From Candidatus Sumerlaeota bacterium (lineage in GTDB: Bacteria; Sumerlaeota; Sumerlaeia; MWCT01; JAUWMI01): a stretch of DNA of 64,000 nt. Shown piece by piece: positions 11,085 to 61,655 of the stretch. The stretch is taken from positions 1,062 to 65,061 of the forward strand of contig JAUWMI010000003.1 of the NCBI GenBank assembly GCA_030613245.1. Reading direction: 5' to 3'. Position 1 is the first letter of the stretch. Every line of letters starts with the position of its first letter. Position numbers and translations under genes: made by a program. A model generated the notes under the pieces. The model did not search any database and was not told the origin of the DNA. It saw nothing but the letters and a program-made list of their open reading frames with translations.

Positions 11085-11149
11085 TGTAGGGGCGTTTAAC
11101 TAAACGCCCATTGAGCTGTGTCTGGGGCGTTCAATAGAACGCCCCTACA
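11085..11149. repeat. REP-like element made of two hairpins in a GTAGGGGCG...CGCCCCTAC frame (BIME-like unit).
   Basis: tgtaGGGGCGTTTAacTAAACGCCC ... GGGGCGTTCaataGAACGCCCCtaca. Both arms are perfect or near-perfect 9-10 bp stems. Confidence 0.8.
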
Positions 11150-11172
11150 ATGCGTATCATGGCAAGATGAAT

Positions 11173-11682
11173 TTAACGCCTCTGCTGATAGATATCTTTC
11201 CAATATAGACCATGCTCAAGGTTAAAATTCTTTGATGATGGGTTTTCTCTATCCAGCTCCCAGTTTATGGGATTGTTCTGAATGTATTCCCTAATTCGGG
11301 ACAATTCCTTCTCGTTACGAATAATGTGTTCGTAATAATTACGCTGCAATTTGAAATTTGAAAAACCATTTTTTCTGCACCAATTTGTCAATGCTGTCTT
11401 ATACGTGCGGATTATTACAGACAAGGTGTTCTTCCTTGGGGATATTCTCACATGATGTGTAGGGGCGTTTAAATAAACGCCCCTCGAGCTGTGTGTTGGA
11501 TTACCAGCTGATCTATCAGGGGCGTTCAATAGAACGCCCCTACAATGTGCATCATTTTCAGTAATCATTATTATTCCATGTAGGTGGTTTGGCATGACTA
11601 TAAATTCATCCAATTGGGTATTACCATGGTGCGCTGATATCTCCTGCCAAAACTTGTCTGCTTTCTTTCCTATTGTAGACAA
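11173..11682 (-). CDS. IS200/IS605-like Y1 (HuH) transposase of the REP-associated tyrosine transposase (RAYT) type. Its reading frame runs through a REP pair.
   Basis: HuH motif 'MPNHLHGIIMI'. The C-terminal 'FKLQRNYYEHIIRNEKELSRIREYIQNNPINW' matches the RAYT tail (catalytic Tyr; YI..NP..W). Residues ~47-85 (CRGVLLNAPDRSAGNPTHSSRGVYLNAPTHHVRIS) are the translation of the REP element at 11458-11544. That stretch is therefore either an in-frame REP insertion or a recently inactivated gene. Confidence 0.6.
   Translation of the reverse strand: MSTIGKKADKFWQEISAHHGNTQLDEFIVMPNHLHGIIMITENDAHCRGVLLNAPDRSAGNPTHSSRGVYLNAPTHHVRISPRKNTLSVIIRTYKTALTNWCRKNGFSNFKLQRNYYEHIIRNEKELSRIREYIQNNPINWELDRENPSSKNFNLEHGLYWKDIYQQRR
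11458..11544. repeat. REP-like two-hairpin element lying inside the RAYT ORF.
   Basis: tgtaGGGGCGTTTAaaTAAACGCCCC ...35 nt... aGGGGCGTTCaataGAACGCCCCTaca. Confidence 0.8.
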
Positions 11683-12020
11683 GATAACGATACCTTCTTT
11701 TACATGGCCAAGACTGCAGAAGCTATTGTATGTACAAATTGTTACAAAATATGCACCTGCCTCGGAATAATCATACCCTTTCAGCCGAATAACCTTTCTA
11801 TTTTACATATCGCCTCAATAGCTGAAAGAGATCATTTTAGCCAGAGGGATTGCTTGCTAAGTCATTGGCATATTTTGACGAAACACGATACTTCAACTTC
11901 TATAAGTACCGACCCCTAGAATATGCGCTCTCGAATGCAATTCCTCCAGCATGGTGACGCATATCATAAACGATGTTCTTTTAAAAAGTAAAGGGGAATA
12001 TCTTGTTCCTATTTGCTTTT

Positions 12021-12107
12021 TGTAGGGGCGTTTTAATAAACGCCCGATGAATAGGTCCGTCTTGAATTAAGCAGGTGTGTCTGGGGCGTTCAGTAGAACG
12101 CCCCTAC
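12021..12107. repeat. REP-like two-hairpin element overlapping the 3' end of the AI-2E transporter ORF.
   Basis: tgtaGGGGCGTTTTAATAAACGCCC ... GGGGCGTTCagtaGAACGCCCCTAC. The last 13 aa of the transporter ORF (RRGVLLNAPDTPA) are the repeat's translation. Confidence 0.8.
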
Positions 12108-13266
12108 GTTTGGCTTCGCGGAGCTTGTCCCACCAAAATTCTTTGATCAGGATGCGCACGACGCAGGCCACCGGAATTGCTACGATCATCCCCCCCAGTC
12201 CGAAGTAAGCGCCAATCATCAAAGCGAGCAACACGGCCAGGGGATGGAGTTCGCTGTTCTTGCCCACAATGCGGGGCGTGAAAATCATACTGTCAATGGC
12301 CTGGATCAGGGCAAACAGGCCGATTACCTCTGCTGAACCTATCAGCTTATCCGAAAGACTGGGGAAACCGCTGGACGCGAGTACCCAGATGAGCGATGGA
12401 ACTGCCCCAAGCAGAGGTCCAAGGTAGGGAATGATGTTACCGATGCCAGCCACGACGCCAATAAGAATGGCATACTTCTTCAGGCCGATAAGCAGCAGGC
12501 CAATCGTGGTCAGCAGTCCTACAAGGCAGCAAATAGTCAACTGGCCCCGCAAAAACCCACCAACTGCCTCATCAATCCGGTTGAGAATGCTGAATACTCG
12601 TTCTTCGTGCTTCGTCGGGATAACTGTTGATACCAGACCCTTGATCTTATGGAAATCCAGCAGGAAGTAAAAATTGATTATGACCACAAGAATCACGAAT
12701 GAGGTCAACGAGAAAAATAATCCGAATCCGGCGGCCACTCTTTTGGCCACCGCACCTGCTACAGAGACTCCCTCTGCGGCTGCGCCGTGCAGTCCCGGAA
12801 GCATGGCGCCGAGAACGCTGCGAAGATCAGTTCCCAGGGATTCTAATGTGTCTGTGATCTTCTGCATTTGCGCTTCGTTCAGTGTGATATCGTATCTCTT
12901 CATGAGCGTGTTGAGCTGAGCCGGTATGACTTCGCTGAGGCGCTTAATGAGTTCGCTGATCTGATGGTAGAGATTGGGTAGTAAGAAGAGCATGAACGCG
13001 GCGATCAACAGCAGAATGATGACGTAGAATGTGACAAGACCCAGGATGCGCGAGAGTTTGAGCCGCTGCTGAACGAACGTCACAATGGGATTAAAAAGGT
13101 AGGCAATAATCAATGCGACGCAGAACGGTGCCAGGATGTTGGCAATTATGCGCAAAACAGGGCTGAGCTGCACCAGTGCATACACTGCAACGGCGATGAT
13201 AAGCATGTATCCGATCACGAGCAGCGTTTTCTTTAGCTTCGTATCAAGATCAGGTATGCTTCCCAT
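12067..13266 (-). CDS. AI-2E family transporter (UPF0118/PerM-like).
   Basis: 399 aa, ~8 TM segments. 'ILAPFCVALIIAYLFNPIV' and the overall topology are typical of AI-2E family permeases. The annotated C-terminus runs into the REP element, so the true stop may be functionally the same. Confidence 0.7.
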   Translation of the reverse strand: MGSIPDLDTKLKKTLLVIGYMLIIAVAVYALVQLSPVLRIIANILAPFCVALIIAYLFNPIVTFVQQRLKLSRILGLVTFYVIILLLIAAFMLFLLPNLYHQISELIKRLSEVIPAQLNTLMKRYDITLNEAQMQKITDTLESLGTDLRSVLGAMLPGLHGAAAEGVSVAGAVAKRVAAGFGLFFSLTSFVILVVIINFYFLLDFHKIKGLVSTVIPTKHEERVFSILNRIDEAVGGFLRGQLTICCLVGLLTTIGLLLIGLKKYAILIGVVAGIGNIIPYLGPLLGAVPSLIWVLASSGFPSLSDKLIGSAEVIGLFALIQAIDSMIFTPRIVGKNSELHPLAVLLALMIGAYFGLGGMIVAIPVACVVRILIKEFWWDKLREAKRRGVLLNAPDTPA

Positions 13267-16592: not shown

Positions 16593-16803
16593 GAATTATG
16601 TACATTCCTGAATCAGTAGTGCGAGTTGCTCCTGCTTGGATAACGCGCCGGAGGCGCATAAACGCATACAATCCCGTTTATGCAAAGAAGCCGGAGGAAA
16701 GGCAAGGGGAAAAAATCAGATGGGTGTGGAGTGATTTATGCGCCTACGGCGCATTCACGTCGTGGCGTCGTGGTTTGATAGTTCTTTTTGTTAGGTGCTA
16801 TTA

Positions 16804-16990
16804 GTCTGTGTTAATCTGTGTTCATCTGTGGTTTCAATATATGTTAATATCGCAACCGCTGATACACGCAGATACACGCGGATTTTGTAGGGGCACGCCG
16901 CTGCGTGCCCCTACCTTATAAATCTCTGTGTCTCTGCGTCTCTGTGGCTGTTTTTTACCACGGAGCATGCGCAAGGCCGATGGAGCAACG
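16804..16990. repeat. Copy A of a ~190-bp composite repeat. It contains tctgtgtt(a/c)a iterons and an embedded GC-type REP hairpin (16886-16915).
   Basis: >90% identical to 17889-18085. The palindrome GTAGGGGCACGC-cgct-GCGTGCCCCTAC sits inside it. Confidence 0.85.
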
Positions 16991-17097: not shown

Positions 17098-17307
17098 ATG
17101 GGTAAGGTGTGGGAAGCTAAAGACATGATACAAAAAATTGTGACCAAACGTAGCTTGCGAGATTCTCGTTCCAAGAATCATGACCTGGCCTATTGGATGG
17201 GCAAGAGCCCCGAGGAACGAGTAGCCACTGTAGACTATTTGCGAAGGCAGTACTATGGAAGTTCAGCCAGACTTCAGAGATCTGCTCGGGTTGTTCAACG
17301 TACATAA
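17098..17307 (+). CDS. Small ORF overlapping the nucleotidyltransferase start. It is a possible cognate partner (antitoxin-like).
   Basis: 69 aa ORF that overlaps the downstream gene by 53 nt in another frame. It is basic, with 'KSPEERVATVDYLRRQYYG'. There is no strong family signature. Confidence 0.3.
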   Translation: MGKVWEAKDMIQKIVTKRSLRDSRSKNHDLAYWMGKSPEERVATVDYLRRQYYGSSARLQRSARVVQRT

Positions 17308-17701
17308 AGTTGAATATATGATTGTAGGGGCCTATGCGCTAGCCTTTCACGGGGTGCCGCGTTTTACTGGTGATCTTGACATTTTTATCAAACCCGATTC
17401 TGAAAACGCTCGGCGCATTTTGCAGGCGCTCGACGAATTTGGTTTTAAATCTGTTGGTCTGACCTTAGAGGATTTTCAGAGCACCGACAAGGTTGTCCAA
17501 CTCGGCGTTCCTCCGGTTCGTGTAGATATCATAACATCTCTGACTGGTGTCTCATGGGAAGAGGCGTTTTCAGGCAGAGCTGAAGGTAAATACGGAGATA
17601 CGCCAGTTTACTACATTGGGCGTGAACAGTTCATTGCGAACAAACGTGCCATGGGAAGAAAGAGAGATTTTGCTGACTTAGAAGCTCTTGGTGAAGAGTG
17701 A
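17255..17701 (+). CDS. Minimal nucleotidyltransferase (Pol-beta superfamily) domain protein, probably a toxin-antitoxin component.
   Basis: 'IVGAYALAFHGVPRFTGDLDIFIKPD' fits the G[SA]x9-13Dx[DE] NTase motif (GDLDIF). 148 aa, stand-alone, flanked by repeats. Confidence 0.6.
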   Translation: MEVQPDFRDLLGLFNVHKVEYMIVGAYALAFHGVPRFTGDLDIFIKPDSENARRILQALDEFGFKSVGLTLEDFQSTDKVVQLGVPPVRVDIITSLTGVSWEEAFSGRAEGKYGDTPVYYIGREQFIANKRAMGRKRDFADLEALGEE

Positions 17702-17888: not shown

Positions 17889-18085
17889 AGTTTTAATCCG
17901 TGTTCATCTGTGTTCATCTGTGGTTTCAATATATGTTAATGTCGCAACCGCTGAAGCACGCAGATACACACGGATTTTGTAGGGGCACGCCGCTGCGTGC
18001 CCCTACCATATAAATCTCTGTGTCTCTGCGCCTCTGTGGCTGTTTTTCTTACATATCACCACGGAGTCACGGAGTAGGTACAAAA
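17889..18085. repeat. Copy B of the ~190-bp composite repeat, with an embedded GC-type REP hairpin (17978-18007).
   Basis: Near-identical to 16804-16990. A third, shorter copy at 18091-18215 lacks the ~90-bp REP-containing core. Confidence 0.85.
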
Positions 18086-35443: not shown

Positions 35444-35474
35444 TGTAGGGGCGTTTAATTAAACGCCCCCTACA
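35444..35474. repeat. Single REP-like palindrome.
   Basis: tgtaGGGGCGTTTaattAAACGCCCCctaca, a 14-bp near-perfect palindrome. Confidence 0.8.
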
Positions 35475-60737: not shown

Positions 60738-60765
60738 GTAGGGACAGATTATAATCTGTCCCTAC
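60738..60765. repeat. REP-like palindrome of the GTAGGG...CCCTAC type.
   Basis: GTAGGGACAGAT-tataa-TCTGTCCCTAC, a perfect 12-bp stem. Confidence 0.8.
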
Positions 60766-61596: not shown

Positions 61597-61655
61597 TGTA
61601 GGGGCAGGCCTTGTGCCTGCCCTATTATTTTGGGCACGCCGCGGCGTGCCCCTAC
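61597..61655. repeat. Pair of GC-type REP-like hairpins.
   Basis: tGTAGGGGCAGGCcttgtGCCTGCCCtat ... GGGCACGCcgcgGCGTGCCCCTAC. These lie between the mazF stop and the carB stop. Confidence 0.75.

Follow-up and report, generated by a model that had tools for sequence, protein, structure and literature searches.

A RAYT gene, probably of subclass 2.4 and probably inactive, with an in-frame REP doublet in a Candidatus Sumerlaeota genome

The locus described here is, with high probability, a REPtron: a RAYT gene of subclass 2.4 and its cognate GTAG-footed REPs, in which the REP inside the gene was inherited and is tolerated and the gene copy itself is probably inactive. It was found in the window, that is, the whole 64-kb stretch of DNA analysed, where the putative REPtron lies between an AI-2E transporter gene and yicC of a Sumerlaeota genome. 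Since the in-frame REP layout was already published in 2018 as the hallmark of a RAYT subclass, the locus is real but ordinary; it adds an example from a Sumerlaeota genome, probably pseudogenised, to an already described RAYT type. An earlier note, made from the DNA letters of the window, had proposed a RAYT-like HuH transposase. That identity is borne out, with cognate REP doublets on either side of the gene and one in frame inside it. The following features are referred to in the text.

11173 to 11808, minus strand: RAYT (TnpA_REP) gene of 211 codons, recognised by its translation, homologues and fold; probably a pseudogene
11803 to 11805, minus strand: in-frame TAA at codon 2; the codon is AAA (Lys, in ATG AAA) in the related contigs L001 and L082
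11575 to 11592, minus strand: HuH motif PNHLHG, residues 73-78; H75 and H77 are invariant in the alignment of homologues
11458 to 11544, minus strand: in-gene REP doublet of 87 nt, codons 89-117, peptide CRGVLLNAPDRSAGNPTHSSRGVYLNAPT
11317 to 11352, minus strand: GTAG-recognition segment K-L-QRNYYEHIIR, residues 153-164, KLQRNYYEHIIR, placed by the 4ER8 alignment
11269 to 11286, minus strand: Y motif YIQNNP, residues 175-180, with the presumed catalytic Tyr175, placed by the 4ER8 alignment
11085 to 11149, no strand assigned: REP doublet of 65 nt that separates the stop of the RAYT gene from the start of yicC, with a spacer 22-25 nt shorter than those of the other copies
12021 to 12107, no strand assigned: REP doublet of 87 nt upstream of the RAYT gene
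12067 to 13266, minus strand: gene of an AI-2E family transporter (Pfam PF01594, E 3.3e-48, domain ending at residue 376 of 399)
35444 to 35473, no strand assigned: isolated 'double-foot' REP, GTAGGGGCGTTTAATTAAACGCCCCCTAC, which belongs to the same family and lies at a distance of 23 kb from the RAYT gene

The RAYT protein and its fold

The RAYT had been placed by the earlier note in the open reading frame 11173-11682. This frame does enclose the middle REP, but it runs further upstream, to the ATG 11808-11806. Its upstream part reads M, a stop and then NRKVIRLKGYDYS... (also given as M, a stop and NRKVIRLKGYDYSEAGAYFVTICT...). The catalytic tail that had been seen in the stretch from YYEH to YIQNNP has to be divided: YIQNNP holds the catalytic Tyr (Y175), whereas YYEH is part of the GTAG-recognition segment WQRNYYEHIIR. 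Both roles were assigned by alignment to the numbering of E. coli TnpA_REP, in which the GTAG foot is bound by W94, Q95, E100, H101 and R104 (Quentin 2018, PMC6006769). The WQRNYYEHIIR of the orthologues matches positions 92-104 of the E. coli structure 4ER8 residue for residue, and the window copy has L for W. In the same alignment, the PNHLHG segment pairs with PEHMHC of 4ER8.

When the family profile was compared with the PDB, 4ER8 (E. coli TnpA_REP) was the sole match (E 8.3e-5), and the matched region spans both the HuH motif and W-Q-x4-E-H-x2-R-x10-Y-I-x-N-P. The AlphaFold model has a mean pLDDT of 77, with values of 85-98 in the core. A Foldseek search with this model returned 4er8_A as the best hit, followed by the TnpA proteins of ISDra2, IS608 and IS200, with E values of 2e-5 to 5e-4. 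The features of a Y1 HuH enzyme, PNHLHG and YIQNNP on an IS200-like fold, are present according to sequence, AlphaFold and Foldseek.

The only Pfam and NCBIfam matches of the window protein were Y1_Tnp and REP_Tyr_transpos, both below threshold. Pfam PF01797 (Y1_Tnp) scored 16.8 bits, or 19.4 bits without the REP, at a gathering threshold of 23; among relatives, L001 scored 25.4 bits, which is above 23, and L081 21.6 bits. NCBIfam NF047646 (REP_Tyr_transpos) scored 48.4 bits against an equivalog cut-off of 80; after deletion of the REP codons the match formed one contiguous stretch of 57 bits (cut-off 80). In RAYT genes of this kind the REP interrupts the domain, which is why their scores stay under the thresholds of Pfam and NCBIfam. 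NF047646, we presume, represents E. coli-type enzymes.

According to the earlier note, the middle REP is translated in frame without a stop and makes up the 39-residue linker. The first statement was confirmed, for codons 89-117 of the minus strand; the second holds for 29 of the 39 residues (83-121) but not for the other 10. In the AlphaFold model, residues 84-123 with the REP-coded linker have a pLDDT below 50 and lie between the strand 73-80 and the helix 126-144; as modelled, the REP-coded segment is a disordered loop. The suggestion that the RAYT tolerates an in-frame REP is supported by this low-confidence loop.

Three REP doublets and a lone hairpin

Three two-hairpin elements had been reported, at 11085-11149, 11458-11544 and 12021-12107, and these coordinates are right. 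Their build is also as claimed: each doublet consists of two GGGGCGTT...AACGCCCC hairpins, with TGTAGGGG at the left and CCCCTACA at the right. A search of the 64-kb window with the pattern GGGGCGTTNNNNNRAACGCCC, allowing at most one mismatch, gave 14 matches, i.e. seven hairpins read on both strands, compared with an expected 0.00 from 100 dinucleotide-preserving shuffles. Six of the seven hairpins form the three doublets and the seventh is the lone palindrome at about 35444-35473. The RAYT gene is thus flanked on both sides by cognate GTAG-footed doublets, with one further copy 23 kb away in the window, where away from the REPtron the hairpin of type A (the GTAGGGGCGTT type) occurs once.

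The in-gene doublet comprises two GTAG-footed hairpins and a 33-nt spacer. All three doublets are direct repeats of each other, and their similarity spans the spacer and extends about 10-15 nt past the feet; they are therefore copies of one unit and not chance hairpins. Identity to the reference copy amounts to 85% and 66% in the 47-nt family and to 93% and 78% in the 40-nt family. Folded as RNA, each doublet forms either two hairpins or one long hairpin, at -38 to -47 kcal/mol. A search of the whole window with Rfam gave zero families at gathering score. A second RAYT that would explain the other palindrome families was not found in the 64-kb window.

In a metagenome scan, the type-A hairpin was found in at least 120 DNA stretches. 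Among the 129 sites listed, 127 lie outside RAYT genes and 2 in a RAYT linker. Because almost all of these sites are outside RAYT linkers, type A is a true dispersed repeat.

Orthologues and the age of the in-gene REP

A protein search yielded 6703 homologues, the best of which has 211 aa and 93% identity. The closest homologues, with 70-93% identity, are mostly 211-217 aa long and contain the same REP-coded linker; the exceptions in length are a 173-aa fragment and a protein of 242 aa that results from read-through into a flanking REP. The AI-2E/yicC site holds a RAYT in four related assemblies, and the window contains one RAYT per 64 kb. Vertical descent as a single chromosomal copy would fit these observations, but the divergent allele at this site in L081 and a second, different RAYT (L009) in the related MAG would not.

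A genome scan yielded L001, a contig from a MAG of Candidatus Sumerlaeota. It is 90-93% identical to the window in nucleotides and has the same gene order, AI-2E, RAYT, yicC, gmk and onward. Its RAYT gene (L001:1836-2471) is intact (MKSRKV...), has 36 differences from that of the window in 636 nt (94% identity) and contains the 87-nt doublet at identical codons, with 4 differences in 87 nt. The contigs L082 and L083 are also syntenic, at 76-78% nucleotide identity. In L082 both hairpins are in frame, and the spacer between them is longer and unrelated to that of the window. The number of REPs varies at orthologous sites, with two tandem doublets 3' of AI-2E in L001 and one in the window.

These comparisons refute the proposal that a REP had very recently inserted into its own RAYT gene in the source genome, a history that we now find hardly credible. 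It could draw on the apparently broken state of the window gene and on the right in-gene hairpin, which together with its 3' flank is 93% identical over 40 nt to the copy downstream of the gene. However, the element is at the same codons of the intact L001 gene, both hairpins persist at the distance of L082 (about 76%), and all of the homologues P0001-P0007 (70-93% amino-acid identity) have it; the similarity within the genome is better explained by homogenisation between copies. Judged from the sequences compared, the in-gene REP is inherited, not recent, and is the norm for subclass 2.4.

Probable inactivation of the window copy

The stop at codon 2 of the window gene (TAA 11805-11803) was passed over in the earlier reading of the RAYT. 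A second change affects codon 154, where TGG has become TTG, such that the conserved W of the WQ motif, the equivalent of E. coli W94, is Leu in the window. In view of the TAA at codon 2 and the W154L exchange, the window RAYT is most likely inactive. It is probably dead, a relic that, to judge from its sequence, was inactivated recently. Relative to L001, the gene has 19 codons with non-synonymous and 12 with synonymous changes. The homologue P0002 shares the W-to-L change, yet its codon 2 is intact. An assembly error could account for the codon-2 TAA. Translation from the TTG at 11682 (codon 43), the first canonical start further on in this frame, would drop the first strands of the fold. 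ORF callers cut the gene short at this internal TTG, and the locus offers a clean worked example for annotation.

A divergent allele in L081

In L081 (GCA_976011075.1), the flanks are 90-92% identical to the window. The RAYT is more divergent, with 71% identity in its N-terminal half and 84% in its C-terminal half. Its in-gene palindrome is single and of another type (GTAGGGGTTCAAAATTTTGAACCCCTAC), unlike the flanking REP; a type-A REP overlaps the stop codon of the gene. The block that cannot be aligned covers window positions 12110 to 11069; it begins at the outer foot of one of the flanking REPs and ends shortly past the other REP. The sequences suggest replacement of a whole REPtron cassette in L081.

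The in-gene palindrome across the family

The in-gene REP was surveyed in 82 homologous genes, whose DNA was taken from 80 genome loci of many phyla. Within the 135 nt after the HuH motif, 66 of the 82 genes have a near-perfect palindrome with a score of at least 9, and in 41 the score is at least 12. Shuffled linkers gave 0 of 82, and adjacent 135-nt stretches of the same genes 2-3 of 82. In these 66 genes the palindrome is located between the HuH strand and the next helix. Most of the in-gene palindromes are of the 'double-foot' kind, GTAGGGGC...GCCCCTAC or GTAGAGAC...GTCTCTAC. In most relatives the gene contains a single palindrome; that of the window contains a full doublet homologous to the flanking doublets, including the spacer. 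A few members, e.g. L068 and L078, have a short linker without a palindrome. The homologues of the window protein thus have an equivalent linker, and it is not unrelated to REPs, as the earlier note had envisaged for the case that its reading was wrong: the linker is itself REP sequence.

The GTAG foot was read in frame 0 (GTA GGG) in 31 genes and in frame 1 (xGT AGG) in 18, and none of the surveyed family genes has it in frame 2, which would create a TAG stop. A cognate copy elsewhere in the locus was found for 33 of 66 genes compared with 73 of 3906 non-cognate controls, typically 300-450 nt off and on either side of the gene. This fraction depends on the criteria: identity of the inner 9 nt within 600 nt gives 15 of 63, and the looser test over the whole locus gives the 33 of 66.

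Distant homologues of about 50% identity, from Bacteroidota, Deltaproteobacteria, Edwardsbacteria and other hosts, show 'CRGVQLNAP' or 'VGVQNFEPL' at the position of the REP linker. The recurrence of the consensus 'CRGVQLNAP' could indicate that selection at the protein level acts on the linker as a functional peptide and that the extragenic REPs derive from this piece of the gene. This is very improbable. The peptides vary widely with the palindromy kept, silent sites are conserved, and the type-A palindrome is outside RAYT genes at the 127 of 129 listed metagenome sites mentioned above. The linker peptide as the selected feature was rejected, as one DNA palindrome is read in two frames to give unrelated peptides (VGA... 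or CRG...) and the segment is predicted to be disordered.

Conservation of the in-gene hairpins

The observations in this section and on the L081 allele go beyond the published account of subclass 2.4 and are tentative. When the window is compared with L082, changes are seen at 6 of 57 nt and at 2 of 19 third positions of the hairpin codons, in contrast to 127 of 516 nt and 73 of 172 third positions in the catalytic core (Fisher p=0.006 versus the hairpin codons); in the spacer 18 of 30 positions differ. The low divergence implies that either selection or homogenisation with other copies keeps the nucleotides of the hairpins unchanged. The base in the loop is the same in the copies of one genome and differs between genomes, AATAG in two window copies and AATTG in three L001 copies, a sequence pattern that points to homogenisation within genomes. 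Pure tolerance leaves the conservation of silent sites in the hairpins unexplained.

These data raise the possibility, to which we assign a low probability, that maintenance acts on the DNA of the in-gene REP. The element might be a protected 'master' able to re-seed the REP family, a substrate that is renewed again and again through gene conversion or exchange by the RAYT, or a cis-acting hairpin of the gene or mRNA through which the RAYT or the cell controls RAYT expression. Besides the silent sites and the loop base, two results of the survey favour maintenance. The inner bases of the palindrome change by lineage and across phyla with self-complementarity kept perfect and a loop of zero in 43 of 66 genes. 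The in-gene copy is also commoner than flanking copies: of the 63 genes whose flanks are complete, 53 contain the in-gene palindrome, whereas 37 have any strong hairpin in the 600 nt to either side, and in 22 the in-gene copy stands without a flanking hairpin over that distance. Against maintenance, the silent-site test comprises 19 codons of one pair, ordinary gene conversion with nearby copies gives the same pattern without function, some members (L068, L078) have a short linker free of palindromes, and the in-gene palindrome of L081 is unlike the REP that flanks it. It is accordingly doubtful that in subclass 2.4 the in-gene REP is more than a tolerated passenger, namely a DNA or RNA element under active maintenance that persists longest within its family and stays palindromic at its silent sites. 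If it were, it could serve as a protected seed of the family, as a site of self-recognition by which the expression of the RAYT or the exchange of its alleles is coupled to the RAYT's own substrate, or as both, and the divergent allele of L081 would reflect the exchange of whole REP-bounded REPtron cassettes. The silent-site conservation of the in-gene hairpins and their excess over flanking REPs merit a dedicated study, because Quentin 2018 (PMC6006769) treats the inserts as neutral.

Relation to known RAYTs, insertion sequences and REPs

The preferred reading, an inherited and tolerated REP in a RAYT of subclass 2.4, agrees with published precedent. The subclass is defined by the signature NH[IFV]H, WQ and YIxNNP and by a mean length of 194 aa (Quentin, Siguier, Chandler & Fichant 2018, BMC Genomics 19:475, PMC6006769), and corresponds to RAYT group 4 of Bertels, Gallie & Rainey 2017 (Quentin 2018, PMC6006769). 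In-frame REP inserts in the β3-αC loop are a hallmark of subclass 2.4, within which their 'predominance' was reported, and were modelled as a peripheral extension (PMC6006769). The window RAYT was assigned by these published motif signatures. Points against the preferred reading are the sub-threshold Pfam and NCBIfam scores and the sparse occurrence of the REP family in the window, with one copy outside the REPtron in 64 kb. It contains NHLH, LQ and YIQNNP, Leu being common in the family at the middle position of the HuH motif, and L001 and L082 contain NHVH, WQ and YIQNNP in proteins of 211-217 aa. The insert at codons 89-117 fits the β3-αC trait, as do those of 66 of 82 relatives. Further likenesses are the length of about 200 aa, the enlarged distance from HuH to Y, the long and 'double-foot' GT[AG]G REPs beside the gene and the patchy distribution across phyla. 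The window locus differs from subclass 2.4 in that its in-gene element is a full doublet with a spacer instead of a single palindrome, and in its codon-2 stop and W-to-L change. The REP table of PMC6006769 lists many GTAGGGGC and GTAGAGAC REPs; the GTAGGGGCGTT type and the host phylum Sumerlaeota are absent from it. Our literature search found no later paper that takes the in-gene REPs of subclass 2.4 beyond Quentin 2018.

E. coli TnpA_REP (4ER8), which belongs to subclass 2.2 (group 2), aligns with the window RAYT at the HuH motif, at W-Q-x4-E-H-x2-R and at the Tyr of YIxxNP. It has only 19% identity to the window RAYT and a different C-terminal extension, and it lacks both the loop insertion after the HuH strand and an in-gene REP; the stem of the E. 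coli REPs is bulged. The TnpA proteins of IS200/IS605 elements (IS608, ISDra2) share the Y1 HuH fold, at Foldseek E values of about 1e-5 to 1e-4, and, by analogy, probably the recognition of hairpins in single-stranded DNA. However, these elements are true multi-copy insertion sequences with subterminal hairpins and have neither a GTAG foot nor an in-gene hairpin, unlike the window RAYT, which occurs once in 64 kb and occupies a conserved site of the chromosome. REPINs and BIMEs, in which REPs are paired in inverted orientation, resemble the doublets as units of two hairpins and a spacer that can fold into one long hairpin. The window differs from REPINs and from other in-frame REPs in its few copies, in the target, which is the RAYT itself, and in the conservation of the site across the subclass.

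Proposed mechanism

Only the E. coli enzyme is known to cleave single-stranded REP DNA at the GTAG foot and to rejoin it (PMC3733652, PMC6006769). By analogy with that TnpA_REP of subclass 2.2, the subclass 2.4 enzyme would bind REP hairpins in single-stranded DNA, its WQ..EH..R segment would read the 5' GTAG foot, and the Tyr of YIQNNP would cut and rejoin the DNA; this transposase activity would create and maintain the REP family. One REP doublet would have come to lie in frame in the loop between the HuH strand (β3) and helix αC. Since that loop is predicted to be disordered and peripheral, the protein would tolerate the insert, and only those frames that avoid the TAG of GTAG would ever be occupied. 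The codon-2 stop and the W-to-L change in the GTAG-recognition motif would be later events that most likely turned the window RAYT into an inactive relic.

The REP-coded end of the AI-2E gene

The earlier note was right that the AI-2E gene has its last 13 codons and its stop (12107 to 12067) inside a REP, with the tail RRGVLLNAPDTPA followed by the stop; the first 41 nt of the 12021-12107 doublet supply this end. The REP-coded tails read ...REAKRRGVLLNAPDTPA in the window and ...RRGVQLNAPDRRA in L001, each followed by a stop. In L081 and L082, the AI-2E protein ends in an unrelated native tail, ...STADA and a stop, and the REP is absent after the gene. As the interval between AI-2E and RAYT cannot be aligned beyond the REP, no target site is definable, and comparison with L081 and L082 yielded no clean insertion junction; the alignment of L081 to the window ends at 12110, three bases short of the REP foot. 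The absence of the REP from the more distant L082 suggests that the REP was gained in the lineage of the window and L001, where, to judge by the aligned tails, it probably replaced about 14 native AI-2E codons. In the proposed mechanism, the C-terminal codons native to this neighbour of the RAYT would likewise have given way to a REP doublet in the lineage of the source genome. REPs that in frame 'decorate' or end ordinary proteins are documented (PMC3733652), and the AI-2E tail is one such case of REPs or Rickettsia RPEs in frame in ordinary genes.

Variation at the REPtron site

The REPtron site, which holds the RAYT gene and its cognate GTAG-footed REP hairpins between the AI-2E transporter gene and yicC, differs between related genomes. 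Where the window has one REP doublet behind the AI-2E gene, the syntenic contig of the Sumerlaeota MAG, which has an intact RAYT, carries two in tandem at the orthologous position (L001:1427-1626). This shows that REP copy number has changed at a fixed site between genomes that are about 90% identical. In GCA_976011075.1 (locus L081), whose flanking sequence matches the window at 90-92% identity, a divergent version takes the place of the entire REPtron block (L081:2294-3335 compared with window positions 12110-11069). Identity between the RAYT encoded there and the window RAYT is 71% over the N-terminal part and 84% over the C-terminal part. The palindrome inside this gene, read as the peptide VGVQNFEPLQ, belongs to another type than that of the window, the upstream REP is absent from the block, and the stop codon is overlapped by one single REP of type A, the family of the window RAYT. 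The REP type inside the RAYT gene of that genome differs from the flanking type.

RAYT/REP pairs in homologues

The Sumerlaeota MAG of L001 encodes a second RAYT:

L009, 354-902, second RAYT gene, 43% identical

Inside this gene lies a palindrome of its own, TTGTAGGGGTTTGATTAATCAAACCCCTACAA, and NQTPT recurs as a peptide pattern in the linker. One genome therefore harbours several RAYT/REP pairs. RAYTs from Dehalococcoidia, Nitrosomonas and Anaerolineae (L017, L018, L031, L044, L045) share one identical in-gene palindrome, GTAGGGGCACGGCATGCCGTGCCCCTAC, a sign that either RAYT/REP pairs have spread horizontally or the hairpins have converged on a few preferred forms. In the linkers of several homologues (L012, L034, L041, L061, L070), half-palindromes occur in tandem repeats, e.g. 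RAPTLRRAPTLRRAPTVERAPT and GQTQGLGQAQGLGQAQGPAPT, and the C-termini of the homologues P0004 and P0008 arise by read-through of the stop region into the downstream REP (...TCRGVLLNTPD... and ...TSTCRGV). Such features suggest that the in-gene hairpin is subject to slippage or is processed repeatedly.

Further GTAG-REP families in the window

Additional GTAG-footed elements lie elsewhere in the window:

16801-16955 and 17893-18047, direct repeat of 155 nt, copies 94% identical
16887-16914 and 17979-18006, GTAG double-foot palindromes GTAGGGGCACGCCGCTGCGTGCCCCTAC, one within each repeat copy
60738-60765, perfect double-foot palindrome of 28 nt, GTAGGGACAGATTATAATCTGTCCCTAC
61598-61655, two-hairpin element with hairpins unlike each other (GGGGCAGGCC.. 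and GGGCACGCCGCGGCGTGCCC), about 850 nt beyond the preceding palindrome

The window therefore contains three or more further GTAG-REP families, and no RAYT matching these families was found within the 64 kb. The GTAGGGGCACGCCGCTGCGTGCCCCTAC palindromes form a second GTAG double-foot family. The 155-nt copies in which they reside bracket a segment of 1.1 kb that contains two small ORFs, one at 17098-17307 and one at 17255-17701; the second of these has a weak, sub-threshold match to an AbiEii nucleotidyltransferase. The segment may be a small cassette that was inserted or duplicated between REP-bearing repeats.
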